A stretch of DNA of 64,000 nucleotides from assembly GCA_963674695.2 (NCBI GenBank), contig CAXXGI010000003.1, positions 448,001 to 512,000 on the forward strand, read 5' to 3'. The position numbers were made by a program, and so were the translations under genes. How positions within the stretch are numbered: the first letter of the stretch is position 1; the number at the start of each line of letters is the position of its first letter. The notes below the pieces were generated by a model. The model saw only the letters and a list, made by a program, of their open reading frames with translations. It did not search any database and was not told the DNA's origin. The DNA comes from a bacterium (GTDB lineage: Bacteria > UBA10199 > 2-02-FULL-44-16 > JAAZCA01). This document shows positions 2,164 through 56,471 of this stretch, one piece after another.

Positions 2164-5100
2164 ATGGACACCATTCATATGCGATTCATTCATCACATCC
2201 TTCGTTCCTTTCTCTCGATCATCATCGCAACGCTTATCACGCTCGGGGCCGCGATCACCGTGCGCGCCGCCGATGAAGTGCAGCCGCAGATCGATGTGCG
2301 GGCGATCTGTAAAACCGTCATGGACGAGGCCTCTTGTGCCAAGATCGAGAATATTCTGCGCAGCGGGTTTGTGCCGGTCTGGGCGATCAACGATGCGGGC
2401 GATGCGATTATGGTCGATGTGGTCTTTGACGGCAGCGTGAAGTTCCCCGAGGCGGCGGTGCTTCTGCGACAGGCCGGTGCTGTCGTCGAACAGGAGAAAT
2501 TCTTCTATGGCCGACGCATTCGCGCGAAGGTTTCCATCCCTGAGGAATACACGGTCCTGCTGCGCCTCATGCGCGGCGATACGGTTTCGGCCTCCGACCT
2601 GACGGCACTGGTCGTGGCGATCACGCATCTGTCCCCCCTGAATCCGAAGGCCGGGGTGAAGCCATATCTGGAGAAAATCGTTCAGAAACTGATCGGTTCG
2701 GTGAAGGCGGTTGCGCGTCTGAGCAGCGTGGCCCATATCGATCCCAAACCGACGCCGCCGCAGAACGAGAATGCGACGGCAGCACAACTCTCCCATATCG
2801 ACCTCATTCGCGATCCGGCCTCCTTCGATTTCGGCGATGGTTTCCCCTGGCCGAACGGCCTCACCGGCGGACTGCTCCTGTCCCCCGTGTCTATCGGCGT
2901 CTGGGACAGCGGGAAGGTCGACATCGATCACCGCGATTTCGGCGAACGCGTGACGGTCGTGGCGACGGATTATGCAGTGTCGGAACACTCCACCCACGTC
3001 TCCGGGACGATCGCCGGCGCGGGCGACGCGAACAGTGTGGGCGGCATGGCGCCCGAGGCGATCATCTATTCCTATTCGTATGGGGATCGCGATCTCTATG
3101 TGGGTGGAAATCCATATGTGCCCCCAGACGTCCCGCAGGAGATGAGCGACGCGGCGGTTGGAAAGCCCTCAAGCATTCTCGACGACCATCACGTGACGCT
3201 CTCGAACAACTCCTGGGGACGCGTCGTGGGGTTAAAGGGCGGTGACTGTGGTTATCCGAACTGGTCCGACTTCGGCGCCTATGATGGTCGGACACGTGCA
3301 TACGATGAGTTGGCGCGCAGCCGGTATCAGCTGCTGATCGTCAAATCCTCGGGCAACGATGGCAACGATAAGTTGACGGTGGATGTTGATCCGGACGAGG
3401 ATGACTATGATGAAAAAGTCAGGAAAGCGAAGAAGGAGAAGATCCGCTCCTGTTTCAGCGTGCCCGATACCGATCCGTTTGGCCTCATCGCCGCGGCGGC
3501 CTATCTCGTCTTCGAGAGCACCTACTGCGGTCCGGCGCGGATCTCCAATTCGCAGTGCGGTGATGCCTGGGACGGCGATCGGGATGTCTATGATGGCGTC
3601 CTCTGGAGCAGTCGTTATTACGATACGATCCCGCCCTGGGGCGTGGCCAAGAACGTCCTCACCGTCGGGGCGGTGCAGGATGACCTGGCGATCACCTCGT
3701 TCAGCTCTTCGGGTCCCACCAACGATGGGCGGATCAAACCGGATATCGTCGCCAACGGTCAGGGCCTTCGCTCGACGCTCCCCGGCGGTGGCTATGGATG
3801 GATGAGCGGGACGTCGATGTCCTCGCCGGTGGTCACCGGTGCGCTCGCGCTCCTGCAGGAGGCCTATCGGGGATACTTCAACGTGAGTCGTCCGCAGAGC
3901 TACATCATGAAGGCGCTCCTCATCCAGACGGCACAGGATCGCGGGCAGACCGGTCCCGACTTCTTCTATGGCCATGGCCTGCTCGATGCCGGAGCGGCCG
4001 TGCAGCTTTTGAAGGATCAGCGCGCCACGCTCGATGCGGGGGCGCTGGCCGGACTCGGCGATTCCTACACGCAGATCCTGCGCGCTTCGATCTCGAACGT
4101 CGGCGATCGCGTGGAGAAGGTGATCAACGTCGAGGCCTGGCCGACCGGTGGCCTCAAGGCCACGCTCGTCTGGCTCGATCCGGCCGGCAGCACGAGCGAC
4201 TGGACGAAGGTCCTGGTCAACGACCTGGATGTCGTGCTCACCGGTCCGGATGGAGAGAAGTATTATCCCTACACGATGCCGTATGCGCGCAAGGCTCATG
4301 AGAAGAAGTACTATAACGATAACGCCGTCCGCGATGCGCCCAATCATACCGACAATGTCGAGGTGATCGAGGTACGCAATCGTCCAGCGAGCTGGCAGGG
4401 GAAGTGGACGATTGCGGTGACGGCAAAAAAGAAGGAGGCGGGGGCGCAGTACTTCGCGCTCATCGCCAACGCGCCGATGACCGATGCCGGCACATCGTTT
4501 TCGCTCTCGCCGATGATCTACACCATCTTTGAGGTGGGGGAACGGGTCAAGAATGATCTTGAAAATCGGCGTGTGCGCACGACCGGTGATCAGGTTCACG
4601 TCTGGGTCGAAGTGCCGGATGCGAATCCGGATGATCCGCCGATTGTCACCGGACGACTCGACGGTAGTGCGTCGTCGACCGCGAACGAAAACATGGTGAT
4701 GGGACGGTACTTCGAAGTGCCGATCGCTTCGATCACGGAGGGGGAGCACGAATTCGTCATCGAAGCGGTGAGTGCGAGCGGCATCCGGCATGGGGCGACC
4801 GATCCCTATGCCGTTGTGCGCGACACCGCGCCGCCGCAGATCGAGGTGCTTTCCCATGCAGAGGGTTCGCATCGGGTGACCGAAACCCGGCAGACGATCG
4901 ATTTTGGCGTGACCGATGCGGGGCCGATCGAGAACGTGCGCTGCATCATGATCGGTCAGACCATCACTGCGACGGTGATCGAAGAGGGTCGTTTCTCCTG
5001 CACGATCGCCCTCGATGCCACGCGCATCGATGAAGAACAGCCCGTTACTATCAGCGCGCGCGACGATCTGAGCAACAGCGCGACGAAGAGCGTTTCATTT

Positions 5101-32949: not shown

Positions 32950-32952
32950 GTC

Positions 32953-33016
32953 GAGATTCCCGCGTTCGCGGGAATGACACCCCTTGCATTGTCATCTCCG
33001 TGAAAACGGGGATCTC
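32953..33016. repeat. Inverted pair of REP-like palindromes (ATTCCC-N8-GGGAAT type)
   Basis: GAGATTCCCGCGTTCGCGGGAATGACA (32953-32979) and TGTCATCTCCGTGAAAACGGGGATCTC (32990-33016). Confidence 0.75.
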
Positions 33017-33057
33017 GATGTAGTTGCCCGGGAATGACGACGGAAAAAGTGAAACCA

Positions 33058-33954
33058 ATGGTTGAAAAGAAACTTATCAAGAAAGGGTCGAAAAACGGTG
33101 CTATTGCCGTCACCGATCCGTTGCAGCGATACCTCCAGGAGGTGCATGCCTATCCGATGCTCACCCCTGAGGAAGAGGTGGAACTTGCGCGCCGCTATCA
33201 TGAGGAAGGTGACATCGAGGCGGCCAAGAAACTCGTGACCACGCACCTGCGACTCGTGGCCAAGATCGCCATGGAGTATCGCAACGCCTACCACAACGTC
33301 TTGGACCTCATCCAGGAGGGGAACGTCGGCCTGATGCAGGCCGTGGCCCACTTCAGCACGGAGGGGGGCGCGCGCCTCGGCCATTACGCCTCCTGGTGGA
33401 TTCGGTCCTTTATTCTCAAGTACATCCTCGAGAACTTTCGTCTCATCAAGCTGGGGACGACCAAGGAGCAGAAGAAGCTCTTCTACAATTTGATGCGCGA
33501 AAAAGAGCGGATCGAGAAGATGGGATATTATGCGACGTCGAGTGAGCTTTCTCGGCGGCTCGGCGTCGATGAAAAGAAGGTCATCGACATGGAGCATCGT
33601 CTGACCACGCCGGAATATTCGATGCACGCCCCGGTCGGCTCCGGCGATGGCGAAGCGCTACTAGAGGATTTCCTGCCGGTCGATGATGCCCAGCCGGATG
33701 AGCACGTCGCTCGGGAAGAGACGCGTGATCTGCTGGCACAGAAGTTTAAGGAGTTCGCCGGGGGCTTGAACGAGCGCGACCTGAAGATCTTCGAGGAGCG
33801 GCTCATGGCGGAACTTCCGCTCACGCTCAAGGAGATCGCCGAGGAATATGGCATCACAAAGGAGCGGGTACGCCAGCTCGAGGCGCGTCTCATCGGGGGG
33901 CTCAAGGCGTTCTTGCAGGAGAGCGGCATTGACGAAGGGACGCTGCAGTTCTAG
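33058..33954 (+). CDS. rpoH: RNA polymerase sigma factor, sigma-32 family
   Basis: LRLVAKIA, DLIQEGNVGLM, RpoH-box-like KLGTTKEQKKLFYNL, TKERVRQLE. Confidence 0.85.
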   Translation: MVEKKLIKKGSKNGAIAVTDPLQRYLQEVHAYPMLTPEEEVELARRYHEEGDIEAAKKLVTTHLRLVAKIAMEYRNAYHNVLDLIQEGNVGLMQAVAHFSTEGGARLGHYASWWIRSFILKYILENFRLIKLGTTKEQKKLFYNLMREKERIEKMGYYATSSELSRRLGVDEKKVIDMEHRLTTPEYSMHAPVGSGDGEALLEDFLPVDDAQPDEHVAREETRDLLAQKFKEFAGGLNERDLKIFEERLMAELPLTLKEIAEEYGITKERVRQLEARLIGGLKAFLQESGIDEGTLQF

Positions 33955-33987
33955 AGAGGCCCTGGCTGCATTCGGGGTGGGGAGATC

Positions 33988-34014
33988 GAGATTCCCGCTT
34001 TCGTGGGAATGACA
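33988..34014. repeat. REP-like palindrome
   Basis: GAGATTCCCGCTTTCGTGGGAATGACA, near-identical to 32953-32979. Confidence 0.75.
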
Positions 34015-34052
34015 TCGATTGTCAGTAATGCAGAAAAAGAGTTGCGTGAAAG

Positions 34053-34080
34053 ATGTTACATAATATATCTTATACGACGT
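34053..34080 (-). other. dif-like XerC/XerD recombination site at the prophage boundary
   Basis: Minus strand ACGTCGTATAA-GATATA-TTATGTAACAT vs E. coli dif GGTGCGCATAA-TGTATA-TTATGTTAAAT: same 11-6-11 layout; gene orientation flips here. Confidence 0.8.
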
Positions 34081-34098
34081 CCGCAGTACGAACAAAAA

Positions 34099-34194
34099 TA
34101 ATCACAACAACGCACAGACTTGCGACAGACACCCGCTAAGATGGTGTCGCGGCCCTTGCGGGCAATCCATGCGTTGTTGTGATTAGCGGGTGTC
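34099..34194 (-). ncRNA. Candidate structured element (pseudoknot-like) adjacent to dif
   Basis: Perfect 16-bp pairing 34099-34114/34170-34185 and 12-bp pairing 34128-34139/34183-34194 interleaved; GCAA tetraloop hairpin on the minus strand. Confidence 0.45.
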
Positions 34195-34235
34195 ATATTT
34201 ATTTTGTTACTCCCCTGAAAAACAAAACTCAAGAG

Positions 34236-34403
34236 CTATTTTCTCTCGGGCCACTTTTTTCCCTCACGCCGCATACGTTCCATGAGCGATTGGATGCAAT
34301 AGTTGTTCGCCGATTGGAGGGCGGCCCTGGCCGCGCGATTGACCGACTCTAGCTCTGCCGGTGTAACTCTGACGTGAATTGTCTTCTTGTCTCGTTCCCG
34401 CAT
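34236..34403 (-). CDS. Ribbon-helix-helix (Arc-like) DNA-binding protein
   Basis: KTIHVRVTPAELESVNRAARAALQSANNYC pattern; RBS GGAGGG; TTGACG upstream. Confidence 0.65.
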   Translation of the reverse strand: MRERDKKTIHVRVTPAELESVNRAARAALQSANNYCIQSLMERMRREGKKWPERK

Positions 34404-34538
34404 CTCGTCCCTCCGATGTACGAATACTTCCACAGTAGGCCCACAGCGTCAACAAAAAAGCGCATGAGCCCTCCGCTGACCATGGCATTACAATGGCATT
34501 TAATGGGGGTTACAGTGAAATCATATTTTTTCGGGAAT

Positions 34539-34757
34539 TTAGCTGTTCTCCGCAACCGCGAGCTGCGCCCAATGCTCGGACTCCAGTCGGGCGTGATAAT
34601 GCGCGATGAGAGCTCCCAGGGCGATCTCTGCGTCGATATTGCCATGCACGGCGTTCCGGGCCTGGTCGATGAGCCTCTGCTCCTCAATCTCTCTCCGGTT
34701 TCGGGGGGACGACTCCACCTGCCCGCCGTCGTGGTTGTTGTATTTACCGATGCTCAT
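34539..34757 (-). CDS. Phage hypothetical protein
   Basis: 72-aa ORF overlapping the end of the spanin-like gene. Confidence 0.45.
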   Translation of the reverse strand: MSIGKYNNHDGGQVESSPRNRREIEEQRLIDQARNAVHGNIDAEIALGALIAHYHARLESEHWAQLAVAENS

Positions 34758-35001
34758 TCCAGACCGGCTCTTTCTCAACCTTGATGATATATGTTTTCAC
34801 GTTCTCATCATTGATAAGCACGGGGACAATCGTCACCTCGCACCATTCCTCGCCGTCGATAACGTGACAATTCCGCACCTGCACAGGCAATAAATCCGGC
34901 CTACGGTGCATCGGGCGCTTCGTCAGGCCAGCTGGACAACATCCGAGCAGCATCATCAGCAGGCACAAAGCCAGACAGGATTTTATAAACACGTTTATCA
35001 T
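34744..35001 (-). CDS. Putative outer-membrane spanin (Rz1-like lipoprotein)
   Basis: Lipobox LLGC, Pro-containing; starts inside the preceding TM gene in the lysis cassette. Confidence 0.6.
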   Translation of the reverse strand: MINVFIKSCLALCLLMMLLGCCPAGLTKRPMHRRPDLLPVQVRNCHVIDGEEWCEVTIVPVLINDENVKTYIIKVEKEPVWNEHR

Positions 35002-35221
35002 GGGCCACCTCGATCTCTTCCTGGTCCTCAGTCGATTCGTTGATTTCCGTGATTTGTTTGGTGGCGGTCGTTTCTTGTCGCGCTACATTCCGGTTGTGTT
35101 CGTATTGACAACCCTTCAGAAAGCCCGCAAAGAAAATGCCCGCAGCAATAGCCATGCAGATCGTATATTTGTTGACGAGCAGTTCCTTCGCGGTTTTCCC
35201 TGCAAGAATTGAAAATATCAT
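34901..35221 (-). CDS. Putative inner-membrane spanin (Rz-like)
   Basis: N-terminal TM then helical periplasmic region; follows holin; overlaps the lipoprotein gene. Confidence 0.6.
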   Translation of the reverse strand: MIFSILAGKTAKELLVNKYTICMAIAAGIFFAGFLKGCQYEHNRNVARQETTATKQITEINESTEDQEEIEVAHDKRVYKILSGFVPADDAARMLSSWPDEAPDAP

Positions 35222-35412
35222 TTCGCCTGTTCCTTCTTCGCCAGCCCGCGACTGATCGTATATGCGGACGTTGTGATGCCCATAATCGTAGACGCGACGA
35301 TCATTGCAGCGGCGGCATGACCGGAATAGATGCCCGCGAGAGCCGTAAACATCGCACCGAGATTGACAAAAACTGTAATCCAAAATTCAGAAGTCTTTGC
35401 GCCAGCTCGCAT
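35218..35412 (-). CDS. Putative holin
   Basis: 64 aa, two TM helices, KTSEFW start, basic C-terminus; next to endolysin. Confidence 0.65.
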   Translation of the reverse strand: MRAGAKTSEFWITVFVNLGAMFTALAGIYSGHAAAAMIVASTIMGITTSAYTISRGLAKKEQAK

Positions 35413-35421
35413 AGGTCCCCC

Positions 35422-35784
35422 TCAAGGCAACTGAAAATGACAGTCTTCCATGCGCAGATTTATCAACCCAAGACTGTTCCCAATCTCGACGGCCCTCTTC
35501 CATGCTGGGCCTTTCGTGTTCCAGTCGAGTTTGCCGCCGACCGAGATCGCAATGTCGAACGCCATTGCTGGCAATGAGTTGTGCCGACTCTTCCCAGGTT
35601 TGCAGCGCGTAAGTATCTTTCCCGATTTTGTTCTGCCCTGTGCGTATAGCTCCGCCTGCTCTTCGTTCGATCTGTGAGTGCACGTCAGGAATGCGTCATA
35701 TCCGGCTTCGTCCATCATTGCGTCCATCTTCGCCCACGCCGCCTTCAGTTTCGGAGCCAAGAGATTTGGGTTTCGACTGGCCAT
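35422..35784 (-). CDS. Endolysin, M15 family L-Ala-D-Glu peptidase
   Basis: HRSNEEQAELYAQGRT, SRHN...AFDI, DCHFQL. Confidence 0.85.
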   Translation of the reverse strand: MASRNPNLLAPKLKAAWAKMDAMMDEAGYDAFLTCTHRSNEEQAELYAQGRTKSGKILTRCKPGKSRHNSLPAMAFDIAISVGGKLDWNTKGPAWKRAVEIGNSLGLINLRMEDCHFQLP

Positions 35785-35786
35785 AT

Positions 35787-36005
35787 TCACGTTCCCCGCT
35801 TCATCCACTCCTTCAGCCACAACAACACAAACCCAACCATCGCTGCGACAAACGCAATCGCCCCTGTGATCCGGTGTCGCCACTGTGTGTTTTTCTTCAC
35901 GGCATCACACACCCCGTCGATCTTTTCGCCCATCGCATCGACGGACGCCTTCATGCTTCCTATCTTTTCCGATATATCAATGAGGATAACGCGCTCGTCG
36001 GTCAT
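35787..36005 (-). CDS. Small coiled-coil/C-terminal TM phage protein (lysis-associated)
   Basis: Heptad-like N-terminus plus one TM helix, just upstream of endolysin. Confidence 0.55.
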   Translation of the reverse strand: MTDERVILIDISEKIGSMKASVDAMGEKIDGVCDAVKKNTQWRHRITGAIAFVAAMVGFVLLWLKEWMKRGT

Positions 36006-37648
36006 AACACCGCCTTGTAGATTGAATGATTCCCGCTCACGTCTGAATAGGATATTTTTGTTCCGACGGTTAGGACTCTGAAGCTGATATATTTTATGGA
36101 GGTATATGAAGTATCTGTCGCGGATAACTGCTCTATATCATCAACATAGACCTTCATAACTCCCGCGGCTGATATTGTCCAAGTGTGTTTATGCCAAGCA
36201 TCCATCGTAAAAACGCCACCTGTAACTAGATAGTTCATTTCTTTTCTCAAAGCTATTGAACCATTGCTGTATGTAACATTGTAATTTGTTCCGGTTGATA
36301 TATCGTCAATCACTTCCTCGCTCAGTTGAAAATATACCTGAGCACCAAACGGAGTTGGCATTTTCATCCAGAATTCGAACCTTCCATGCAACGCCTCCGT
36401 TGGAGTTTGCCCGAATACAGAAATCGGCATGCTGAAATTACCAATAGATACATTTTCAATCGCTTTCACATCCGCGCCGTTAATTGAATCGGTTGAGATT
36501 CGCCATAAGCCAGAATCAATAGTAAATGGTGTGTTTTCTAAAAACCCTCCAGTTCTGGTTGATGCTGAAACATGAGCACCCCAATCGGTTTTCCACGATT
36601 CAGGGTAAATCTTTCCAACCTCGACCACGTTCACGTTATCGAACCACACGCTGTTAATGGTCGTTCCGTTATAATAAAATTGTACGCTCGCATTTGTCGC
36701 AACGAATGTTTCGTCAAACGATTGAAACGACGCATCGGTTGTGCCAACCCACAGGGTGGCGCCAGAATACACGCGAGGGGGCACCGTTCCGTTCCCACGA
36801 GCTTTGCCTGTCACTCGATACGTTTTGCCGACTTCAAGAAATGACTGATACGCCCCGGGGTTGTTCGCGCCGGTTCCAGTGATTTTCAACGACCGCGTCC
36901 CGCTATATTTTATAGTGGTGTCTTTTGTTAGGTCTCCGCTTCCGCAGGCCAGCCATGACGCAACACCAGCCGCTTCCATATCGCCGTCGGCAATTTCGTT
37001 TGGGTCGGATTGTTTTGCTTTCGCAGTCGCCTTCTGCGGCCACCGCATTCCCTCCATCTCATCTTGTACATCAGAGATTTCGGTGTCAGTTAAAATCCGA
37101 TTTACAATGACGATCCATGCAATCAGACCGTCATACGTTCTCGTCCCGTCCGATCTATTCCCGACAATCACATTCGTGGTCCCCGCTGCTGGCGTTCCGC
37201 TCGCGGAATCGGAGACTGTTTCGATGGCGTCTTTGAAGATGTTTACGACGCCCGCGCTGGTTCTGGTAATCCCGATCACAACGGGTGTGCCATAGTCTAT
37301 GGCGCAATTCGCCGTAACGGTTCCACCGCCATTCGACGACACATTGACGGCGCTCAAGTCCGGCGTCTGGACAATGAATTTGCCATTATCCAAAAATTTA
37401 CCGTAACCATTTTGGCCTTTGGATCTGGCATTTATTTTAAAAACAACGGATATGTCCCCCGCTCCGATGAAATCAGCGCCAAGGTCGATGCCCCCAGCGA
37501 CACCGTCGAAGTTCCACCCGAGTCTGGAAAACGATAGACTGTTGGGCGTTCCGTCTTTGGTGCTACCAAAATCAAGACAGCATCCAGATCGGCCGTCGTG
37601 ATACGAAAGAAGTGCACCCTCGTTTTTAAGCTTCTGGATTGTGCTCAT
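36002..37648 (-). CDS. Putative receptor-binding/tail protein with LamG-like and carbohydrate-binding domains
   Basis: WNFDG...YDGLIAWIVIVNRILTDTEI (LamG-like); IADGDMEA...GTRSLKIT...WFDNVNV (CBM4/9-like). Confidence 0.7.
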   Translation of the reverse strand: MSTIQKLKNEGALLSYHDGRSGCCLDFGSTKDGTPNSLSFSRLGWNFDGVAGGIDLGADFIGAGDISVVFKINARSKGQNGYGKFLDNGKFIVQTPDLSAVNVSSNGGGTVTANCAIDYGTPVVIGITRTSAGVVNIFKDAIETVSDSASGTPAAGTTNVIVGNRSDGTRTYDGLIAWIVIVNRILTDTEISDVQDEMEGMRWPQKATAKAKQSDPNEIADGDMEAAGVASWLACGSGDLTKDTTIKYSGTRSLKITGTGANNPGAYQSFLEVGKTYRVTGKARGNGTVPPRVYSGATLWVGTTDASFQSFDETFVATNASVQFYYNGTTINSVWFDNVNVVEVGKIYPESWKTDWGAHVSASTRTGGFLENTPFTIDSGLWRISTDSINGADVKAIENVSIGNFSMPISVFGQTPTEALHGRFEFWMKMPTPFGAQVYFQLSEEVIDDISTGTNYNVTYSNGSIALRKEMNYLVTGGVFTMDAWHKHTWTISAAGVMKVYVDDIEQLSATDTSYTSIKYISFRVLTVGTKISYSDVSGNHSIYKAVL

Positions 37649-38651: not shown

Positions 38652-38761
38652 TTCGTGCCTCCTTTACTTCGCCGCTAGTTATCTAATTGATATTATTACC
38701 CTATTAAATCCTTGAATGTAGGCCCCGTCTAGGGGTAGTGTCCTCGACAGGAGGCCTTCCA

Positions 38762-39319
38762 ATGAAAAAGCTTATCTGCATTGCCCTTGTATCCATATTC
38801 GTTTCAGCGTGTGGCTCCGGTGGTTCAACGGCGCCGTCTTCATCGCCGTCAGGTGATGTGTCCGCATCCTTGCCCGATATTATCGATCAAATATCGGATG
38901 GTATTTTCAAGTATGCCGATCCATCACTCTACAGAGGCACATACTACAAGGCCAGCAACCCGACCGATACGTGCAGCAGCGACGGTGGAGTTATGCCAGC
39001 CACCATTGAAATCGCTGCCATGACAAACGGCTCAATGGTAATGATCTATGACGAATTTCAAGAAACGCTTGGTTCAATTCCTCAAACCGAATTTGATTTC
39101 TATGTCTTTGAAGGCCTTTACTCCGGGTATTCTTGCCTGTACGCCATGAGCAGCATGAACAGGTCGGGCACCATCGATAAGGCGGTTGCCTATTGCGAAG
39201 ACGCTGATTCGACCTTGTCGTGCGCCGTTGGATACGAGCGCGCTTCCGCTTACGACTTTACAACCACGACAATTAAAGGCGATCCAACAAATGCCTTTAA
39301 GAGCCTTGAGGACTTTTGA
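38762..39319 (+). CDS. Lipoprotein moron, opposite strand to the phage late operon
   Basis: MKKLICIALVSIFVSAC lipobox, Ser/Gly linker, RBS AGGAGG. Confidence 0.75.
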   Translation: MKKLICIALVSIFVSACGSGGSTAPSSSPSGDVSASLPDIIDQISDGIFKYADPSLYRGTYYKASNPTDTCSSDGGVMPATIEIAAMTNGSMVMIYDEFQETLGSIPQTEFDFYVFEGLYSGYSCLYAMSSMNRSGTIDKAVAYCEDADSTLSCAVGYERASAYDFTTTTIKGDPTNAFKSLEDF

Positions 39320-46300: not shown

Positions 46301-47886
46301 TCCACATACTCCGGCTGTGACCCAAGATCGGTGACTCCGATTATCATTTCGTCCACCTTCATAGCTTCGCTTGCCGACGAATGACTCATCTGCGTCAGCA
46401 CCCAACGCCCAGAGATGGCCCTTTCTCCATCTGAAGGAGTCAATCTGCATCTGGTGTACTTCGTCGCGGGTGATGACCAATTATCAGTACCCCAAACAAG
46501 CGTGCCCCACATTCCGCCGGATGCTGCAATTGAGATTGCCGCCGCGCCGGACATTCGTTGTGTCGCAGCCGTAACCGTCATGTTCGTTGCGGATGACTGC
46601 GTGGTCTGCACGTTCAGGTCGGTCAATAACTTGACGTGGCTCGGGGAACCGAAATCAATCTTGCCTGTCTGCCATTTGCTGACGATCGTTTTTGAGTCTT
46701 CATCAAGTAATCCATAATCCTGCCGAAGCGCAAAACCGTTATAGTCACCAGTGACTGGCATCTTCAAACCAGAGGCGCTTTCAAATATCGCCATAGCGTT
46801 TGCATTTATGCCGACATGATAAAGGTTAGAACTCAATGTGCGGCCAGTCTTCTCGTCCGAGAAGTTATCGTTGAAATAATCGTAAACCATGATCTGGCTG
46901 TGCGTGGAATCAGACCCAAGTGACATCGAAAGCCAATACTGATTCAACCCTGTGTAATTCATACTTGAACACACGTTGTGTCGCGATCGGCTCATCGTGT
47001 CATAGAGCGGCTTTGCCGGGTCGCCCAACTGAATCAGGTTCTTTGTCCCGTTGAATCCCTTGATCGTCCCTTCGGTGGAGAGAAAGACAAGAATGTTCCC
47101 GTACCGTCTGGACTCAACCTCACGAATCGAGTATCCGGATGCGCAGCCCTCACCCGAAACGATTGTCTCGGTGTACATGTCGCGCGCAGGACTCGACCCG
47201 GAAATGGCATATATTCCGCTTGGCTTGAATACGATTACACGGTCGGCATAAATCGCATGCCCCGTTATGTTCTCACCACCGCCGGAAAACCTCACCACGT
47301 CATTGAGAAGATCCCAACTTTCACCATCTCGAAGACCGGACAGGTAAACAAAGTCATCCACCACGACCCACAGCTTATTCTTGTGAACAAGTGGCCACTT
47401 GAAATATTCTGGAGGAGAGCCACCAAGGTCTGCGGCATCTCCCGTGCCTGTCCATTTGATCGCCGCTGCATCGCCTTCCTTGCATCCGATGATAATTTCA
47501 TTCGCCGCCCCAGAATCGTAGAACGTGGCGAATGAGGCCAGCTTGTCTGCGTCGTCCGTGAGCGTAACCGACCCCGTCTTGTCCACCCAAGCCCCAGCGG
47601 TCAAATGCTTGAAAGCGTCGCCGCCCATGCCGACCTGATACAGCGTCCCGCCCAGCTTCGTGCTGTACAGCCCGACAAGAGGCTTTGCAGTCGTGTCCGT
47701 CTTCTCCTTGAACGCAACAGCGTTGAGCTTTGTGGAGCCTTTGCGCTGCGAGACAGCTTCCTCGCCGATATTCACATTCTGAAGGCCGGAAGACTCCCAA
47801 AGATGAATTGCCGTGTCTGAAATCTTGGTATTCAGCCCAAGAAATCGTTCAATCCGAACCGGAGTTGTGGTTTTCTCCTGGCCCAT
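46297..47886 (-). CDS. Tail nozzle / DNA stabilization protein (P22 gp10- or T7 gp12-like)
   Basis: FLGLNT start, RKGS, beta-propeller-like repeats, position after the adaptor. Confidence 0.65.
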   Translation of the reverse strand: MGQEKTTTPVRIERFLGLNTKISDTAIHLWESSGLQNVNIGEEAVSQRKGSTKLNAVAFKEKTDTTAKPLVGLYSTKLGGTLYQVGMGGDAFKHLTAGAWVDKTGSVTLTDDADKLASFATFYDSGAANEIIIGCKEGDAAAIKWTGTGDAADLGGSPPEYFKWPLVHKNKLWVVVDDFVYLSGLRDGESWDLLNDVVRFSGGGENITGHAIYADRVIVFKPSGIYAISGSSPARDMYTETIVSGEGCASGYSIREVESRRYGNILVFLSTEGTIKGFNGTKNLIQLGDPAKPLYDTMSRSRHNVCSSMNYTGLNQYWLSMSLGSDSTHSQIMVYDYFNDNFSDEKTGRTLSSNLYHVGINANAMAIFESASGLKMPVTGDYNGFALRQDYGLLDEDSKTIVSKWQTGKIDFGSPSHVKLLTDLNVQTTQSSATNMTVTAATQRMSGAAAISIAASGGMWGTLVWGTDNWSSPATKYTRCRLTPSDGERAISGRWVLTQMSHSSASEAMKVDEMIIGVTDLGSQPEYVE

Positions 47887-48851
47887 TACGTCCTCGGAAA
47901 GTTTGACGGAAACTGCGCAACCGGCAAGGAACTGCTGAGGCTGAACGAGTTCAACGACCAGACACCGGAAGGCTGTTTGTCGTCTGCAATCATGTCCTTT
48001 ATTCGCAGCTTAAACTCCTCATACGTCGTCCGAAACATTGAATCGTTGTTCAAATGCTTGAAGCAGCGCGCAATCGCATAAAGCTCCGGCACGTCATGAT
48101 ACTTTTCGGGGATTAGCGAGATGTCATCGTTCGCCGACAACGTTTGCAACGCCATCGTGAAGTCATAGTAAATCGTGTCCACGGAGTCGGGAACGCTGTA
48201 GAGCGACACCATCGGGTGCGAAACCGACCTATCCTTCGGGGCAATGGCAACATTCGTCACCGCAGCCGCGTTCGATGTGACCGTCACCGTTCCCACTGAC
48301 CCGGCGCTCTTGGATAGGCTCATCACCTTTGTGTAGGAATGCGTTGAGCTGACAGGCGTTGTGCCGTTCAGCGTAACCGTCTCTGGCACGAACACCCCGG
48401 ACCCGTTTAGCCCCTGGATGTTCACAACGACAGCGGTATCAGAATCGCTCGTGGACACGAACGACAACACAGAAGCCGCAGACGGCTGATTCTGCACCGG
48501 TGAGTACCCAACCAGGCGGTACAGATACGCATCCCCTGTGGACTCTGCACCTGGATCAAACCGCCTGAATTCTGCTTCGGTCTGATTGTCGAGGTGTCGC
48601 GGGGTGTCCGTACTGTACATCGTGATAATCTTTGACGTGTCCACAAGCGGGCTCAAGGCATACGTCTGAGTATCTGCCGCCGTGGTGAGCGTATAGCCGT
48701 ATTGGCGAAGCCACGACCACCCCTGCCGCTTCCCAGACGAAGACCCAACGATCTTCTGTCCACGGTCAAGCCAACGGATAATGATCGAGTCAATATCCGT
48801 GATCGGATGACACTCGGCGTTCACGTTTTTGACCTGCTCCGCTACGTTCAT
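47886..48851 (-). CDS. Head-tail adaptor protein
   Basis: IIRWLDRGQ...WSWL...YAL; LIPEKYHD; position after capsid genes. Confidence 0.65.
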   Translation of the reverse strand: MNVAEQVKNVNAECHPITDIDSIIIRWLDRGQKIVGSSSGKRQGWSWLRQYGYTLTTAADTQTYALSPLVDTSKIITMYSTDTPRHLDNQTEAEFRRFDPGAESTGDAYLYRLVGYSPVQNQPSAASVLSFVSTSDSDTAVVVNIQGLNGSGVFVPETVTLNGTTPVSSTHSYTKVMSLSKSAGSVGTVTVTSNAAAVTNVAIAPKDRSVSHPMVSLYSVPDSVDTIYYDFTMALQTLSANDDISLIPEKYHDVPELYAIARCFKHLNNDSMFRTTYEEFKLRIKDMIADDKQPSGVWSLNSFSLSSSLPVAQFPSNFPRT

Positions 48852-50023: not shown

Positions 50024-50971
50024 TTATGCCGTCACTCCGCACATCACGCCGCACGCCGCAGCCCGGTCAGTCGTAAACTGGGCGTATAGAAGATACTTCG
50101 CGGCGCTGTAATCACCGTCTGCGGGCTCGATGAATTTCCCGATCGTGAAATTGTAATCTTCGTGGATGTACAGTTTCAGGTGGCGGGTGTTGAGGAGGTA
50201 AATCTTTCCGGACGGGCAGTTGTCGTCAAAAATGACGTCAATCCCCTGGAACTTCAGCGCCTGAAAACCAAGATCGGCAAGCTTCGGGTTCTGGTACTGA
50301 GCCTTGCCCTGGGCAATGTTCTCAAGATACCCAAAGTTCGTGTCGTCCATGACGATGATGTCCGGCTTGTTCGTGCCTCGCGTGAGGCTGCGAATCATCG
50401 TGGACATCTTCGGAACGAGATAAGTTCCGTATGAACCGACCGAGTCATCAACCTTGTTGCGCCAGAAAGCGTTTGTAGCGCGGTTGATTCCACCGAGTGT
50501 TCCGGTGGTCGGGTCGACGTCAACGAGAGCCTGCAAACCGAGAATGTCCTTGCCACCGTTCCCGGTTCCATCACCGAACATCATGACAGACACCTTATCT
50601 GCCATAGAAAGCTCGGCTTGCTCCTTCAACGTCTCAAGGATGCTGATCTGCTTTTCACGACCGGCGTTTCTCGCCCGGGTAATTCCGTCGATTGAAATCG
50701 GGCAGACGGTCTGCTTCCAGTTGAACTCCGCCGCCGTGATTCCACCGGGATCGGAGATGTCAATCGTGTCGCGACCGGCATAGCTCTGTGCGTTGGCCTT
50801 CTTGTAGAGTAGATCGCGCTGGATCTTGTCACCGCCATCGAGCTTGATCGCCTTCTTTAAAACCAAATACTTATACAGAGGAATATTGTTGCTGATATTA
50901 TCAGCCATAGTCTTCTGCAAATTGTTGAATGTCGTCGATGCAACCGCATCAAAATTTGGGTTTCCTGGCAT
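50024..50971 (-). CDS. Major capsid protein (HK97 fold)
   Basis: MADNISNNIPL, GDGTGNGGKDILGL, GGINRATNAFWRN, ALKFQGIDVIFD, IYLLNT. Confidence 0.88.
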   Translation of the reverse strand: MPGNPNFDAVASTTFNNLQKTMADNISNNIPLYKYLVLKKAIKLDGGDKIQRDLLYKKANAQSYAGRDTIDISDPGGITAAEFNWKQTVCPISIDGITRARNAGREKQISILETLKEQAELSMADKVSVMMFGDGTGNGGKDILGLQALVDVDPTTGTLGGINRATNAFWRNKVDDSVGSYGTYLVPKMSTMIRSLTRGTNKPDIIVMDDTNFGYLENIAQGKAQYQNPKLADLGFQALKFQGIDVIFDDNCPSGKIYLLNTRHLKLYIHEDYNFTIGKFIEPADGDYSAAKYLLYAQFTTDRAAACGVMCGVTA

Positions 50972-51019: not shown

Positions 51020-51739
51020 TTATCCGCCGGCAAGTTCTGCTTCAGCTTGCGCGAATGCCTCAGCTACGCTCATCGCATGACCGTTTCCAGAAGTTGAAGG
51101 GGCAGAATTCGGAGCCGAAGCCGGGGTATTCTTGTCCTTGTTCCCGATCTCCGCGTAAATCTTGTCCTTCATCTCCTGTTCGATCTTCGCACGATCTACA
51201 GGGTTCGTCGCATTCCACGCGCTCTCTAAATCGAGAGCCGGAGACTGCGCCATCAGGTCAAGAACCTTGTTGCCCTGCACCTGACCCGTAATCGGGTCCT
51301 TGTAATCGTACTTGCTCCAATCATCGCCGAACTTCGCCTTGCCAACCTCGTATTGCTGCTTGTAGGCTGCCGCAAACTGCTGCTGTACCAGCGGTTGAAG
51401 AACCTTCTTTTCAATGTCCGAACGAATTGCTTGCGCGCCCTCGTAACCGAACTGCTCAACCATCGCATCGTGCTCCTGCTGCGTCATCGGCTGCGGTGCG
51501 TGCGAGGTTTGAGGAATCGATTGTACGCGCTGCAAAAGCCCTTCGTTTCGTGTGCGGAGTTCTTCGGCCTCAGACTCTAACGAGTTCTTTTGATCGTTGA
51601 TCTCCTTGAACCGTTCGTATGGAACCGGACCAGGCGTTTCAGTGTTTTGCGTCCCTGCGGACGGCGCTGGATCGGTCACTGGTTCGACTACTACTGGTTC
51701 GGGCGCTGACGGGGCTCCCTCTGTGTTTACGTCTGTCAT
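51020..51739 (-). CDS. Capsid scaffolding protein
   Basis: VPYERFKEIN coiled coil, acidic; between portal and capsid. Confidence 0.75.
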   Translation of the reverse strand: MTDVNTEGAPSAPEPVVVEPVTDPAPSAGTQNTETPGPVPYERFKEINDQKNSLESEAEELRTRNEGLLQRVQSIPQTSHAPQPMTQQEHDAMVEQFGYEGAQAIRSDIEKKVLQPLVQQQFAAAYKQQYEVGKAKFGDDWSKYDYKDPITGQVQGNKVLDLMAQSPALDLESAWNATNPVDRAKIEQEMKDKIYAEIGNKDKNTPASAPNSAPSTSGNGHAMSVAEAFAQAEAELAGG

Positions 51740-53646
51740 ACTGCACCTCCTGGACCCATCGGTCCCTGAACTGGTGATGGAGCCACAGGACTACCCTGCG
51801 GCCCCGCCCCTGGCGCTGGTAATGGCGCAGGGGTAGGCTGTTCAGCCCCTTTAAAAGACTGACCAGTCATGGGCATCGGCGGCGCACTCGCTGCCTCTGC
51901 CATTTGGTTTGCTTGCATCTGGGCCTCGAACATCTTGTGACCCAAAATGTGGATGATGTTCTCGTTGTTCCCGTTCGATTCCTGCTCGTGAATCATCCGG
52001 TGCTTCTTGTGATTCTCGTTGATCTTCGGCGCAATGTACGAGCCCGCGTTCAATAGCCGCGATTCTTCCATCGGATTATCTTTCTTCATCGTGAGGTTGT
52101 CGTTTCGCACGTCAAACACCTCGACCGCTTCGTTAAGGACTTCTTCAATATCCAGTCCAGGCATGAGGTTCCCGGTAGCCACAAACTTCATGAACCCCTG
52201 GAATTTCGCCATGCGGGTCTGGTCATTGTCCGGCATGGTTGACCCGGCCTTGATCCTGACCTTGAGCTTCTTTGAAATATCCTTCTTGGTAATCTTGAGG
52301 AATGGATGCTTCGCGGTCCCCTCGATCGTTTCGCCGAGACGGTCCTGATAATCCATGAACTTGTTGTCGGTCATGCCTGTCAGGGCGACAGTCTTCGTTG
52401 CGCTGTAGTTTTTCTGCATCAACTGAATCCACTTTCCGGCAATGGATGCAATCACCTCTTCAAGCCGCTCAAGGTTCTCGCTCGAAATCTCCTGCGCGGC
52501 CATCTCGACGGCCTTAACTTCCGTTGCTGTTTTTTCACCGGAGGTCTGACGCGGTGCTTGCTTGCTTATTGTCTGGATGTCCTGACGAACTGCTTGCTCT
52601 GCGGCAAAAAGCTGCGGGTCAAGGGCTGCGTGCGTGAGTGGTTCTACATCCTGACTCGCACCAAGTTCAACAACGACCGAATCATCACTCGACTTCAACT
52701 GCGCCTTCTGCGTCTCGTCCAGATCGCCACGGGCCTTATATTTCGAATTCCCCTTCTTCGCATGGTTCAAAAGCATCGTCCGGAACGTCGCGAGCTCAAT
52801 TAGTTGGTCACGCCAGAAGAAATAATCTGATTTTGTATCAGGGCGGTCCGGGATGTCGTTGTATTCGAGGAAATCATACATCGTATCGAACGGATAAGTC
52901 TTGCTCTCCGGTTTCTTCACGAACTTATCGATCCCCTCGACGATTACGCAAACCTTTCCATTCTTCCGGTCTTCAATCTCGTAATAGGTACCATACTGAA
53001 AATCGCTTTTAACTTCGTTCCCGTAGTCATCCAGGTCCTTTGATCCCTTGTCCGACTTCGTAACCGTGATGTCGCTCCGCTTCTTAATCCAGAACTTCTC
53101 GGCGATGTCGGATACCTTCGACTCGATCTCATGTGCAATCCACGGGGACGTTTTCCAGCTCGTGGCACTCGGGTCTTTGAGCAATTGCTTCAACGGCACC
53201 CGATCGGTTCGCACGTCGTCATTCTTGACGCGATCGTCCCACTCGTCCTTTACGAAGTTCTTCTTGAAGTTGAAGTACGTCTTGAACCCGCAAACACCGT
53301 AGAACTTCGTGCTCTTGATCCCATCCCGCATCAGCGATTTCATCTTCAACTCGGGCCATTTGATATTGACCGCAAGCTCGGCGCGCTCCGCGTCCTGCTC
53401 GGCGCCGGGCTCGTCGGGATCGATAAATATCTTGGGATTTCGGGAATAGTATTCAGGGACGGACTGCTTCATGTCGACGTAGACGAGATTTACCGCCACG
53501 CCGTCAACAAAGCCCGCTTTTGATGGAATCTTGCCTTCGTAGTGCTCGACGGACTTATCACCGTCTTTGAGCACTGGCTTTCGCGCTTCCTTCGCAAGCG
53601 AAATGCGGGCCTTCCAAACGTCGTATTGTTCTTTTAGCGTTGCTAT
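51736..53646 (-). CDS. Portal protein (open frame extends to an ATA codon at 53646; first standard start is GTG 53574)
   Basis: About 630 aa after terminase; KTATEV motif; Pro/Gln-rich tail; position before scaffold. Confidence 0.8.
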   Translation of the reverse strand: MATLKEQYDVWKARISLAKEARKPVLKDGDKSVEHYEGKIPSKAGFVDGVAVNLVYVDMKQSVPEYYSRNPKIFIDPDEPGAEQDAERAELAVNIKWPELKMKSLMRDGIKSTKFYGVCGFKTYFNFKKNFVKDEWDDRVKNDDVRTDRVPLKQLLKDPSATSWKTSPWIAHEIESKVSDIAEKFWIKKRSDITVTKSDKGSKDLDDYGNEVKSDFQYGTYYEIEDRKNGKVCVIVEGIDKFVKKPESKTYPFDTMYDFLEYNDIPDRPDTKSDYFFWRDQLIELATFRTMLLNHAKKGNSKYKARGDLDETQKAQLKSSDDSVVVELGASQDVEPLTHAALDPQLFAAEQAVRQDIQTISKQAPRQTSGEKTATEVKAVEMAAQEISSENLERLEEVIASIAGKWIQLMQKNYSATKTVALTGMTDNKFMDYQDRLGETIEGTAKHPFLKITKKDISKKLKVRIKAGSTMPDNDQTRMAKFQGFMKFVATGNLMPGLDIEEVLNEAVEVFDVRNDNLTMKKDNPMEESRLLNAGSYIAPKINENHKKHRMIHEQESNGNNENIIHILGHKMFEAQMQANQMAEAASAPPMPMTGQSFKGAEQPTPAPLPAPGAGPQGSPVAPSPVQGPMGPGGAV

Positions 53647-54302: not shown

Positions 54303-55694
54303 TCACAACGCCCCAATTCTCCGGGGTTTCAATTTCTCCTCACGTTCCGCCTGTCGTTCCGCCGCTTCCATCATCGTCATTTTCTTGTCCTGGTTCTTCC
54401 ACAACGGCGGCCGACTCATCAGTCCAAGCCTACAGCTTTCAAGCGCGTGATCGACACAGTCATCAGCAATATCCTCGACGTTTCTTTTGCTGTGATATGC
54501 TGACGTTAATTCCTCAATCAAATTCACGCATTGATTCGATATGTGCCACCACGAAGACTTCCCCCCCTGATAGTCTCGAAGTCTCAAGTAATCCCTCATC
54601 CGCGACCAGCCATCAATGCGCGACGAATCGCCCATCACCATCGGCACGCCGTTTTCGGCCCAAATGTCAGACCGTTTGACACTGGCCAACTTTCCATGTT
54701 TCCAATGCTCCACCTTGACCGGAAAGCTCTGTGGATCGCCGACAGTGTATTTGACGTCTTCGCTTTCCGCTGTGTAGCTGGCGACCTCTTGAGCGGCGAC
54801 GATGTCGTGCTTTTCGGTTTCATAATATTCCCGATACGTGTAAATGTGCTGATCCGGTCCTATCGCGTGCCAATAAACAGCCATCGGACTCGTGTATCCC
54901 CAATCTACTGTCCTGAACCGTGGCCAACTTTCAAGGATGCGAATATCAGCAGGGCTGTAAACGTGATGAACCCGATCAAACTCTGTGAAGTACGCCCCTT
55001 CGAATACATCCCAATTTCCATCTCTCCACGCTGATCGAAGAGGCTCCGGCAGACCGTTTAAAAAGTTCAGGTAATCCGGATCCTTTTTCATCAGCGTGGG
55101 GTTGTCTGTCACCTTCCCCGGAATGAATATTCTCGTCCTGCCAGTCACGGGATCAACGTATTTCGTCCCAGGTGGCGCGATCGATACGAACCGACCCTTG
55201 ACCCATCCGTGCCCAGGACCGCCAGGGTTCGACGTGTTGAACACCCTTGCGTCAATGCCATCAACCGTGGAGCGACAGGAGCTTATCAGCTTCAGGTAGC
55301 GTTTCTCGCTCGGTATCTGCGTCAACTCCTCGATCAACATCCGCTGATATTCATGCCCCTGGTACTTCTCGTAGGCGTTCTCGTCCTTGAGGTGGCCCGT
55401 CCTGATCTTCGCTCCGGAAGGAAACCTGATTTCCGCCGGTTGACCGATCACTTCGCCACCGCTTGACGCGTACATGAACCGTGCGCGGTCCAGCCAATCC
55501 CTCAAATCGTCCGCGTTCTTGCGGATCACCAACCCCCTGTATCGAGGGAACCGAATCGGCTTGGTCATCCACACGATTCCCCCATCCGTCTTCCCTGGCC
55601 CCCTTGCCCCCCCATAGAGGAGTTCAAACGCCACGGTCCGTAACGCCATCTCTTGCGGTCCGGGGTGAGGCTTCCATGTCAAAGAGCTACTCAT
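54303..55694 (-). CDS. terL: Terminase large subunit
   Basis: Walker A YGGARGPGKT, Walker B MLIEE, TSNPGGPGHGWVK, nuclease VDWG and DHALESCR. Confidence 0.95.
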   Translation of the reverse strand: MSSSLTWKPHPGPQEMALRTVAFELLYGGARGPGKTDGGIVWMTKPIRFPRYRGLVIRKNADDLRDWLDRARFMYASSGGEVIGQPAEIRFPSGAKIRTGHLKDENAYEKYQGHEYQRMLIEELTQIPSEKRYLKLISSCRSTVDGIDARVFNTSNPGGPGHGWVKGRFVSIAPPGTKYVDPVTGRTRIFIPGKVTDNPTLMKKDPDYLNFLNGLPEPLRSAWRDGNWDVFEGAYFTEFDRVHHVYSPADIRILESWPRFRTVDWGYTSPMAVYWHAIGPDQHIYTYREYYETEKHDIVAAQEVASYTAESEDVKYTVGDPQSFPVKVEHWKHGKLASVKRSDIWAENGVPMVMGDSSRIDGWSRMRDYLRLRDYQGGKSSWWHISNQCVNLIEELTSAYHSKRNVEDIADDCVDHALESCRLGLMSRPPLWKNQDKKMTMMEAAERQAEREEKLKPRRIGAL

Positions 55695-56130
55695 CTTCCT
55701 TCGGCACGTAGAGTACTATCCCAACAGGTCTATCGGGATCGCCGGACAATTCGCTTTTGTCCGTCCACTTGTGCATATTCTTCAATGCAAAAATCGTTGC
55801 GGAAGGAACGAGCGAACCGGACATCATCCCACAGACCATCTTGTTCAATTGAATATCCTTGGCCATTTTATATGCCATGGAAAATTCGTCATGTTTTCCG
55901 CACCATTCAATCAACGTCCCGGTGTGAACGCCTATTTTGTCAGCGAAACCCTCGAAGAAGTTTGGAAGCTCACCGAGCTTGTGTTCGGTGACGTTGCCCT
56001 CATACGAAAACAGCTTGTAGACATCTTCCCCACCATCGCGCATGTGGTCGATAAGCTGCTGGCAATACTCTGGCTTGTATTTAGTGGGGCGACCAACCGG
56101 ACGTTTGCTCTTTTTCGGTTTATTGCTCAA
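55687..56130 (-). CDS. terS: Terminase small subunit
   Basis: GRPTKYKPEYC, HTH GFADKIGVHTGTLIEW...EFSMA, IFALKN; TTG start after GAGAGG; overlaps terL. Confidence 0.82.
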   Translation of the reverse strand: MSNKPKKSKRPVGRPTKYKPEYCQQLIDHMRDGGEDVYKLFSYEGNVTEHKLGELPNFFEGFADKIGVHTGTLIEWCGKHDEFSMAYKMAKDIQLNKMVCGMMSGSLVPSATIFALKNMHKWTDKSELSGDPDRPVGIVLYVPKEDE

Positions 56131-56255
56131 AGTACCTCTCCCGCGTTTCGCAGGAAAGGGCGGGCATCTCACCGTGGGGGTAAATTGAAATGCTGACGAG
56201 CGTGCCCGGTTCCCTTCCCACACATCAGAGATTAGCACGCCGTCAAGAATAACGC

Positions 56256-56471
56256 CTATGGGATTGAATGGTAGAGTGTGGTTTTGTTCGGTAGGTTTTT
56301 TGATTTCACGATGTTTTTGTCCATCCACTTCACAAGATCGCATTCCTCAACGACGATCCTTCCGTTGATTCGCTTGATTGGGAGCGGGCTGCTTTCATGC
56401 CACCGCCTCACGGTTTCCCAGCTTCGCCCGACTCTCTTTCCTATACCCTTCCATCCCCACAGTAAGCTCAT
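56256..56471 (-). CDS. Small HTH (Xis/MerR-like) DNA-binding protein
   Basis: GWKGIGKRVGRSWETVRRW...LPIKRING...LVKW. Confidence 0.7.
   Translation of the reverse strand: MSLLWGWKGIGKRVGRSWETVRRWHESSPLPIKRINGRIVVEECDLVKWMDKNIVKSKNLPNKTTLYHSIP

Follow-up and report, generated by a model that had tools for sequence, protein, structure and literature searches.

How does a tailed phage come to lie precisely at dif, the Xer recombination site of its host chromosome, when no integrase can be found in it? This question is raised by a stretch of 64,000 nucleotides (hereafter the window; positions 448,001 to 512,000 of contig CAXXGI010000003.1, assembly GCA_963674695.2, that is, G000:C3:448001-512000) in which a prophage begins at a dif-like sequence downstream of rpoH. 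The genome, G000, is of 3.03 Mb and is assembled in three contigs; it was compared within a set of 93 species-level genomes of its class, which belongs to a poorly known uncultured phylum. The region past the window end is given in the numbering of locus L001, in which 5073-5087 corresponds to G000:C3:517073-517087. Our answer is that the element is probably a tailed phage which integrates by means of the host recombinases XerC and XerD (XerCD), through recombination between a dif-mimicking attP and dif.

The dif site of G000 and the prophage junctions

The sequence at window positions 34053-34080 reads ATGTTACATAA-TATATC-TTATACGACGT on the + strand, and constitutes a 28-bp site of 11-6-11 form with inverted inner arms. 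The Vibrio dif motif printed in the accessible text of a 2025 survey of Vibrio phages (PMC12715192) has the same form. An earlier note on this DNA had placed such a site between the host rpoH and the lysis end of a phage, and that is where it lies, rpoH ending at 33954 and the endolysin gene occupying 35422-35883. The 28-mer given in that note is correct, but the string is the reverse complement of the + strand.

Five lines of evidence lead to the conclusion that this site is the chromosomal dif of G000, the raw GC skew being discordant. When the whole of G000 was scanned with the core of the family site, allowing up to five mismatches, the matches obtained were the site itself, a partial copy at C3:517067 and three random-looking sequences with five mismatches each; a looser dif-type scan of the same genome gave no site better than 34053-34080. 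A 15-base pattern that spans the centre and the arm next to it is present in 26 of the 93 genomes, with one copy in each of 25 and two in G000 alone (the reversed pattern, used as a control, gave 3 matches). In eight of eleven rpoH loci from relatives the site, with up to six mismatches, is found just 3′ of rpoH, and in six of the eleven rpoH, dif and shc (squalene-hopene cyclase) are contiguous without any insert, which places the host/phage junction exactly at the site. The inner ACATAA, the centre TATA(T/C)(C/G) and the sequence TTAT.CGAC are kept among these sites, while their flanks are variable. In G068, a genome of another family which is available as a single contig of 2.75 Mb, the homologous site is located at 2,615,273, inside the 5-kb bin in which the G-C skew changes sign: 24 positive bins precede the bin of the site, which is the first of 12 negative ones. 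The host also encodes the proteins that act at dif, its XerD (L024:651-1616) and XerC (L025:1300-2382) scoring 357 bits (TIGR02225) and 337 bits (TIGR02224), both above the NCBIfam equivalog cut-offs, and its FtsK carrying a gamma domain (FtsK_gamma, 111.6 bits).

Octamer and gene-strand polarity switch at the same place. Octamers GGGNAGGG resembling the FtsK-orienting polar sequences (KOPS) had been listed in the earlier note as pointing towards the site from both sides; all the positions listed are confirmed, and two + strand copies (11498 and 31657) had been overlooked. Along C3, 70 copies on the + strand versus 18 on the - strand are found up to dif, and 4 versus 29 at 517-700 kb. Their cumulative polarity peaks at window position 32883 (C3:480,883), 1.2 kb off dif, with 12 consecutive + copies ahead of the site and 11 consecutive - copies past the prophage. 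A de novo search for skewed octamers yielded none clearly superior to GGGNAGGG. The flip of gene strand at the site, reported in the same note, is equally borne out: the majority of long open reading frames (ORFs) lie on the + strand as far as C3:480 kb, and between 480 and 660 kb on the - strand. There is a region of about 80 kb, C3:520000-600000, in which these markers disagree, the ORFs being mostly on the - strand and the octamers numbering 1 + versus 14 -, yet the + strand being G-rich.

The 15-bp core of the site is repeated 5 kb past the window end, 59 bp upstream of shc; the chance expectation for such a repeat is about 6e-5. The prophage between the two copies measures 35,009 bp and occupies exactly the rpoH-dif-shc gap that relatives have empty. 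It sits in dif and is bounded by dif and a dif-like site, which is a trait of those integrative mobile elements that exploit Xer (IMEXs). The left junction, attL, keeps the full dif. The right junction, attR, keeps the 6-bp centre and 9 bases of the XerC-side arm, so that the repeat at the far end is part of dif and no unrelated att sequence. The outer bases of this arm in attR, CC, are those of the host, as seen in relative L010. Identity between attL and attR sets in with the first base of the centre, exactly where the centre meets the XerD-side arm; of the 11 positions of that arm, only 2 in attR agree with dif. According to the site anatomy in the accessible text of PMC6744903, the border of the central region is where Xer recombinases exchange strands. 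Since the identity begins at the first centre base, attP would lack a XerD-type arm; it would have consisted of a full XerC-type arm, an identical 6-bp centre and unrelated sequence in the place of the XerD-type arm.

Contigs from three public runs (X1, X2 and X3) span the integrated attL with 0 differences, and in run X1 the host flank and the prophage are joined on a single contig of 24.8 kb. No loose end at the att core occurs among the contigs listed for these runs, which is uninformative on excision, as contigs drop rare variants. An exact-pattern search with the phage-side att flanks gave 0 matches in viral contigs and 0 in metagenome contigs.

Both phage-side flanks have a structure of their own. 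Next to attL there is a branched hairpin (34099-34185) with perfect inverted repeats of 16 and 12 nt, a folding energy of -61.6 kcal/mol (z = -5.6) and no match to an Rfam family; it may serve only as the terminator of the late operon, or be an accessory structure of attP. Next to attR, about 240 bp without a convincing ORF contain GAGCGGT(G)TTTT twice and CAAACTCAAGA twice, the copies of the latter (L001:4984-4994 and 5005-5015) being 21 bp apart. The sequence GAGCGGTGTTTT, at the position of the XerD arm of attR, has a near copy 97 bp upstream (L001:4964-4983 versus 5061-5080). An accessory protein may bind to the CAAACTCAAGA and GAGCGGTGTTTT repeats.

Origin of the recombinase and competing explanations

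To judge from its sequence, the element would be the genome of a tailed phage of a new lineage, as marked by its terminase and by the kin of its capsid protein. When the large terminase subunit (TerL) was compared by tblastn, 740 phage records were matched, Caudoviricetes among them, with a best identity of 40%. None of the genes of this phage is recognisable as a recombinase. Six-frame searches of G000 with PF00589 and PF00239 gave five and four matches, respectively, none of them within C3:482-517 kb. When ORFs of the prophage were scanned individually (48 ORFs against Pfam, 30 queries against PHROGs and 7 against NCBIfam), no integrase, transposase, resolvase or recombinase was found. The 35 kb hence contain no tyrosine or serine integrase adjacent to attP, in contrast to the related prophage described below. 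The absence of an integrase from the part of the phage inside the window, which the earlier note had pointed out, thus holds, and it extends to the 5 kb beyond. That note had also suggested integration at dif, either by the host XerCD or by a Xer-like recombinase of the phage itself; the former option is supported, XerC and XerD being present, and the latter is not, as no such protein was found. Because the 35 kb hold no tyrosine or serine recombinase and XerCD is present, catalysis is probably performed by the host XerC and XerD.

A search of the 93 genomes with the terminase identified a single related prophage, in genome G051 (G051:C195:45739-82753; 37 kb; loci L021-L023 and L026). Both prophages have a related structural module (capsid, 51% identity; portal, 37%; terminase, 49-52%) and a related AAA_24 ATPase (46%), arranged in the same order. 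The G051 prophage differs in that it is located not at dif but at tRNA-Gly(CCC); its tyrosine integrase adjoins this tRNA gene, and its att repeat of 16 bp, CCCTCAGCTTGGGAAG, has its second copy 37 kb off. It also lacks the two genes with which the G000 prophage ends: ORF123 at attR and a gene for a 65-aa ribbon-helix-helix (RHH)-like protein at attL. As this related phage is of the ordinary integrase/tRNA type, the integrase-free dif module of the G000 phage looks like the result of a module exchange.

The junctions found in G000 recur elsewhere in the class. ORF123 is present in three of the 93 genomes, whether searched for with the single protein or with a profile, and is always beside a dif-like site of this kind. 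In G012, of the same family as G000 and another genus, two contig ends are relevant. Contig C73 carries rpoH, a full site ACCTTACATAA-TATACC-TTCTACGACGT, a homologue of the RHH gene (48-51% identity) and a homologue of the endolysin (65.5%) before it ends; contig C9 carries shc, a dif-like sequence ACTAGCTATAA-TATACC-TTATCCGACTT, an ORF123 homologue (40-42%) and a zinc-ribbon ORF, and ends likewise. In G086, which belongs to another family, the sequence AATGCGCATAA-TGTATC-TTTTATCTCTT comes after shc, with the XerC arm and the centre intact and the XerD arm degenerate; 150 bp further on lies an ORF123 homologue (49-52%), after which the contig ends. No PF00589 match was found on the available phage ends of G012. 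The RHH homologue of this genome (L095:3556-3729, on C73) contains one in-frame TGA and could be a pseudogene or reflect an assembly error. G012 measures 3.6 Mb, with 5% contamination and 16 PF00589 matches, and its genus-mate G007 1.8 Mb; the assembly could be a composite bin, and its two contig ends carry correspondingly limited weight.

The ORF123 family has 29 invariant positions, which include an ERRVRR motif. Its predicted model is of low confidence (pLDDT 58) and has no fold match, and the protein atlas gave no usable match either. A predicted complex of ORF123 with XerD and XerC scored 0.17 versus a mark of 0.32, no controls being included, a score that weighs neither for nor against an interaction. 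Neither the ORF123 profile, compared with viral contigs, nor the zinc-ribbon ORF, compared with viral and metagenome contigs, retrieved any relatives.

The course of events that we propose is the following. A temperate phage of 35,009 bp, devoid of a recombinase of its own, would bring into the cell an attP which mimics the host dif, and XerC and XerD would recombine it with the dif that the chromosome carries between rpoH and shc. The product attL would be a complete, presumably working dif with the phage on its XerC side. By analogy with the satellite phage TLCphi and the gonococcal genetic island (GGI), the poor XerD-side arm of attR could shield the prophage from FtsK-activated deletion during dimer resolution. 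Since a tailed phage must excise or produce unit-length genomes, and XafT, on which TLCphi depends, is not there, a phage-encoded factor of a new family would activate or regulate both the reaction and excision. Position and conservation make ORF123 the best candidate for this factor, the RHH protein being the second. We further put forward, as a tentative proposal, that these components form a portable integrase-free lysogeny module of tailed phages, composed of a dif-mimicking attP whose XerD arm is dead and, flanking it, ORF123 and the RHH gene. One of the two proteins would be a new factor for Xer activation or directionality, related neither to XafT nor to FtsK-gamma, and would allow a phage of 35 kb to enter and leave dif with no recombinases but the host XerCD; the module would have replaced the integrase/tRNA module of the sister phage.

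Several observations weigh against integration by the host XerCD. At E <= 1, no match to DUF3653/XafT (PF12375) was found anywhere in G000, which leaves an attP whose XerD arm is poor without the only known route of activation. Neither an attP circle nor an empty site was seen, the contigs of the three public runs bridging only the integrated attL. No repressor or lysogeny module was recognised with Pfam and PHROGs; as, in addition, almost all of its genes share one direction, the phage could be of a lytic type and have been captured by accident. The elements of G012 and G086 are known from ends of 0.5-3.8 kb only, their tailed nature and their lack of an integrase being unproven, and the capsid and terminase queries from G000 match no counterpart in these two assemblies. 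The closest viral relatives as judged by the capsid, records G098 and G099, have no PF00589 match but also no convincing dif-like site. The raw GC skew of G000 drops across the prophage and then returns to weakly positive values between 520 and about 600 kb; without the prophage its maximum would lie about 85 kb from dif, and skew alone would put the terminus near C3:600 kb. Finally, we take the left arm of attL as written to be the XerD-side arm and the right one to be the XerC-side arm by analogy with published dif sites only.

Three other explanations compete with this one. The phage might possess a dif-targeting recombinase from a family not yet described, XerCD being uninvolved: about half of its ORFs lack a family match, and ORF123, which is conserved, always adjoins the site and has no recognisable fold, could be read in this way. 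However, a protein of 123 aa is below the size of any known recombinase catalytic domain, and the six-frame search gave no tyrosine or serine recombinase signal. Moreover, the att identity stops exactly at the Xer cleavage border and a full XerC-type arm is kept, which a foreign enzyme would have no reason to respect. We thus consider a recombinase encoded by the phage unlikely. The same boundary, together with long prophage ORFs that are all intact, argues against an integrase-dependent phage whose attB overlapped dif and whose integrase or lysogeny module near attR was later deleted, leaving the prophage locked in. Such a loss would fit the unrecognised repressor, as the whole lysogeny module would be gone, and it would fit the position of the integrase in the G051 prophage and in the viral record G044, on the AAA_24 side, which is here the attR side. 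As the same integrase-less junction, with its terminal gene at 130-370 bp from the site, recurs in G012 and G086, i.e., in different genera and families, this history appears very improbable.

The third alternative is that of a plasmid-like or lytic replicon which uses its dif-like site for the resolution of multimers by XerCD, integration being an occasional by-product. Plasmid Xer sites are established, as the accessible text of PMC6744903 sets out, the element has a replication initiator and an AAA_24 ATPase of its own, and no lysogeny module was recognised in it. Nevertheless, degeneracy affects the XerD-side arm, as it does in IMEXs, three genomes have integrated copies in the same place, the 24.8-kb contig of run X1 joins host flank and prophage, and no partition genes were found among the prophage ORFs scanned with Pfam. 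A replicon of this type is, in our view, quite improbable. Integration of a tailed phage by the host XerCD is the reading that we retain.

Gene content of the prophage and its host flanks

The features of the locus are listed in Table 1. The prophage runs 5,087 bases past the window end, where all its genes are on the - strand. In the order of transcription on this strand, there are first ORF123, small ORFs including the zinc-ribbon one, the AAA_24/Sak4-like ATPase, the replication initiator, a protein with four cysteines, a beta-solenoid protein, a DUF1064 nuclease and RtcB. These are followed by the small terminase subunit (TerS), TerL, the portal-like, capsid and adaptor-like proteins, a GNAT acetyltransferase, a fibre-like protein with carbohydrate-binding module (CBM) and Laminin G (LamG) domains, the endolysin with other lysis-region proteins, and the 65-aa RHH-like protein. 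All long ORFs are intact; for about half of the ORFs a family match is lacking. As to HK97-type capsid, portal and tail functions, there are only SU10 matches of capsid and adaptor below the threshold, the fibre-like CBM/LamG protein, and a portal recognised by synteny.

Table 1. Features of the rpoH-dif-shc locus of G000 and of the prophage inserted in it. Plain coordinates are window positions; those with the prefix L001 lie past the window end.
Feature	Coordinates	Strand	Remarks
rpoH (sigma-32), last host gene before dif	33034..33954	+	Sigma70 r1_2, r2, r4 domains; relatives annotated sigma-32 at source; synteny with dif and shc
Host repetitive extragenic palindromic (REP)-like repeat, ATTCCC-N8-GGGAAT type, non-phage	33985..34017	.	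many G000 copies
Chromosomal dif, now attL	34053..34080	.	XerD-side arm ATGTTACATAA (host), centre TATATC, XerC-side arm TTATACGACGT (outer bases phage-derived)
15-bp att core TATATCTTATACGAC	34064..34078; direct repeat G000:C3:517073-517087 (attR, outside window)	.	start-to-start 35,009 bp
Branched hairpin of ~90 nt with U run, terminator-like	34099..34185	-	late-operon end, 18 nt from att site
65-aa ribbon-helix-helix-like (NikA-like), terminal gene at attL end	34236..34433	-	Pfam NikA-like, 25.8 bits, below cut-off of 27
Putative spanin-like lipoprotein, lysis cassette	34744..35001	-	lipobox-like N-terminus only; no family match
160-aa lysis-region protein	34901..35383	-	no family match; 41% homologue in viral record G098
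Endolysin	35422..35883	-	PHROG 465 and others, E = 4e-15
Tail-fibre-like protein	36002..37648	-	CBM_4_9, Laminin_G_3 domains
193-aa orphan lipoprotein (moron)	38738..39319	+	lipobox; no homologue besides self
Head-tail adaptor-like (weak)	47886..48851	-	SU10_adaptor, 23.7 bits, below cut-off; syntenic homologues in G098, G099, G051
Major capsid protein	50024..50971	-	weak sub-threshold SU10_MCP match; 50 IMG/VR relatives, up to 65% identity
Portal-like protein	51736..53574	-	position between terminase and capsid; no family match; syntenic homologues, 62% in G098, 37% in G051
Terminase large subunit	54303..55694	-	PHROG 979, E = 1e-37; also PHROG 2
Terminase small subunit	55687..56343	-	PHROG 3064 and 309
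RtcB RNA ligase, full-length	61167..62441	-	Pfam E = 7e-113; PHROG 1075
DUF1064 / Holliday-junction-resolvase-like nuclease	62730..63128	-	
Beta-solenoid repeat protein, 367 aa in full, extends off window	63074..64000	-	phage family with NSQVG-type solenoid repeats
4-Cys protein, 223 aa	L001:197-868	-	four invariant cysteines
Replication initiator	L001:869-1654	-	
AAA_24 / Sak4-like ATPase	L001:2616-3728	-	
Zinc-ribbon protein	L001:4146-4448	-	
ORF123, 123 aa	L001:4452-4823	-	terminal phage gene, attR end; no known family
attR	L001:5062-5089		AGCGGTGTTTT-TATATC-TTATACGACCC
Host shc (squalene-hopene cyclase), after attR	L001:5146-7227	+	

The 223-aa protein with four cysteines and the 367-aa beta-solenoid protein are the largest early proteins of unknown family. 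The former has a confident model (pLDDT 88), for which no solved fold, that of a recombinase included, was retrieved at E <= 0.001, the best TM-score being 0.26, with the lambda P loader; searches of PDB sequences with these two proteins gave nothing useful. Relatives of the AAA_24 ATPase were found in one genome contig and in five IMG/VR records, AAA_24 being the sole gene shared. It may be speculated that the RtcB ligase counters host defences that cleave tRNA. On the host side, the REP-like repeat occurs also at window positions 32951-33021 and is shared by several families of the class with 91-97% identity; it gives rise to spurious joints and to depth peaks when metagenome contigs are placed. 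About 5 kb past the prophage there is a giant ORF of 2,705 aa on the - strand (L001:10031-18148; G000:C3:522031-530148).

Relation to known Xer-exploiting elements

In the accessible texts, Xer is exploited by filamentous phages, gokushoviruses, tailless double jelly-roll phages, satellites and islands, and the habit is presented as one of small elements without a tail. Searches of full-text literature found no description of a tailed phage using Xer at dif, subscription journals and supplementary tables (of IMEXs near dif and of DUF3653 carriers) being outside this scope. In the accessible part of the 2025 Vibrio survey, IMEX phages figure as non-tailed and smaller than 16 kb, in contrast to tailed phages that encode Int (PMC12715192). 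The mechanism that we propose is IMEX-like; what is new is its carrier, a tailed phage with double-stranded DNA, and the putative accessory gene family, a prior description being possible.

If the proposal is correct, the most abundant class of phages can do without an integrase, and prophage finders that are anchored on integrases would miss such prophages or misplace their bounds. It would also mean that an insert of 35 kb adjoins a site which every cell requires for the segregation of its chromosome. How a site with a dead XerD arm recombines and is later excised without XafT would then become a question, for which the ORF123 family offers a testable candidate. The biology of dif, KOPS and XerCD is, in addition, extended to a poorly known uncultured phylum.

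Among the known systems, the filamentous phages of Vibrio (CTXphi and VGJphi type) and the dif-type double jelly-roll phages also lack an integrase and use XerC/XerD at dif, one of their junctions restoring dif and fixed pairs of terminal genes flanking attP (accessible text of PMC12715192). The positional counterpart of these pairs is here formed by ORF123 and the RHH gene. The phage of G000 differs from them in its size of 35 kb, in its TerS/TerL packaging and in terminal genes that are unrelated to rstR and xafT; no tandem array is seen either, only two copies of the core being present.

TLCphi, the satellite of Vibrio cholerae, comes close in other respects. As reported in the accessible text of PMC6744903, the XerC arm and the centre of its attP are good, the XerD arm departs significantly from the canonical one and binds XerD weakly, and the flank on the XerD side is without ORFs. 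Like the element studied here, TLCphi has no integrase and integrates at dif with a degenerate XerD arm, to which the attR arm with 2 of 11 matches would correspond, its assignment being itself based on analogy. The flank without ORFs would have its parallel in the approximately 240 bp without a convincing ORF. TLCphi differs in being a small satellite that replicates by means of an HUH endonuclease and depends on XafT, a protein with helix-turn-helix and DUF3653 domains, whereas the G000 element is a 35-kb phage with terminase and capsid genes; the DUF3653 factor that defines the IMEXs of the TLC type is absent from it.

The GGI, in turn, lies between dif and a dif-like site whose XerD arm is degenerate, and has no XafT, according to the accessible text of PMC6744903. 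The element described here shares these three traits, being bounded by dif and by a site with a degenerate XerD arm in the absence of XafT. The GGI, however, is an island encoding a secretion system and is propagated without excision, whereas a tailed phage must either excise or make unit genomes.

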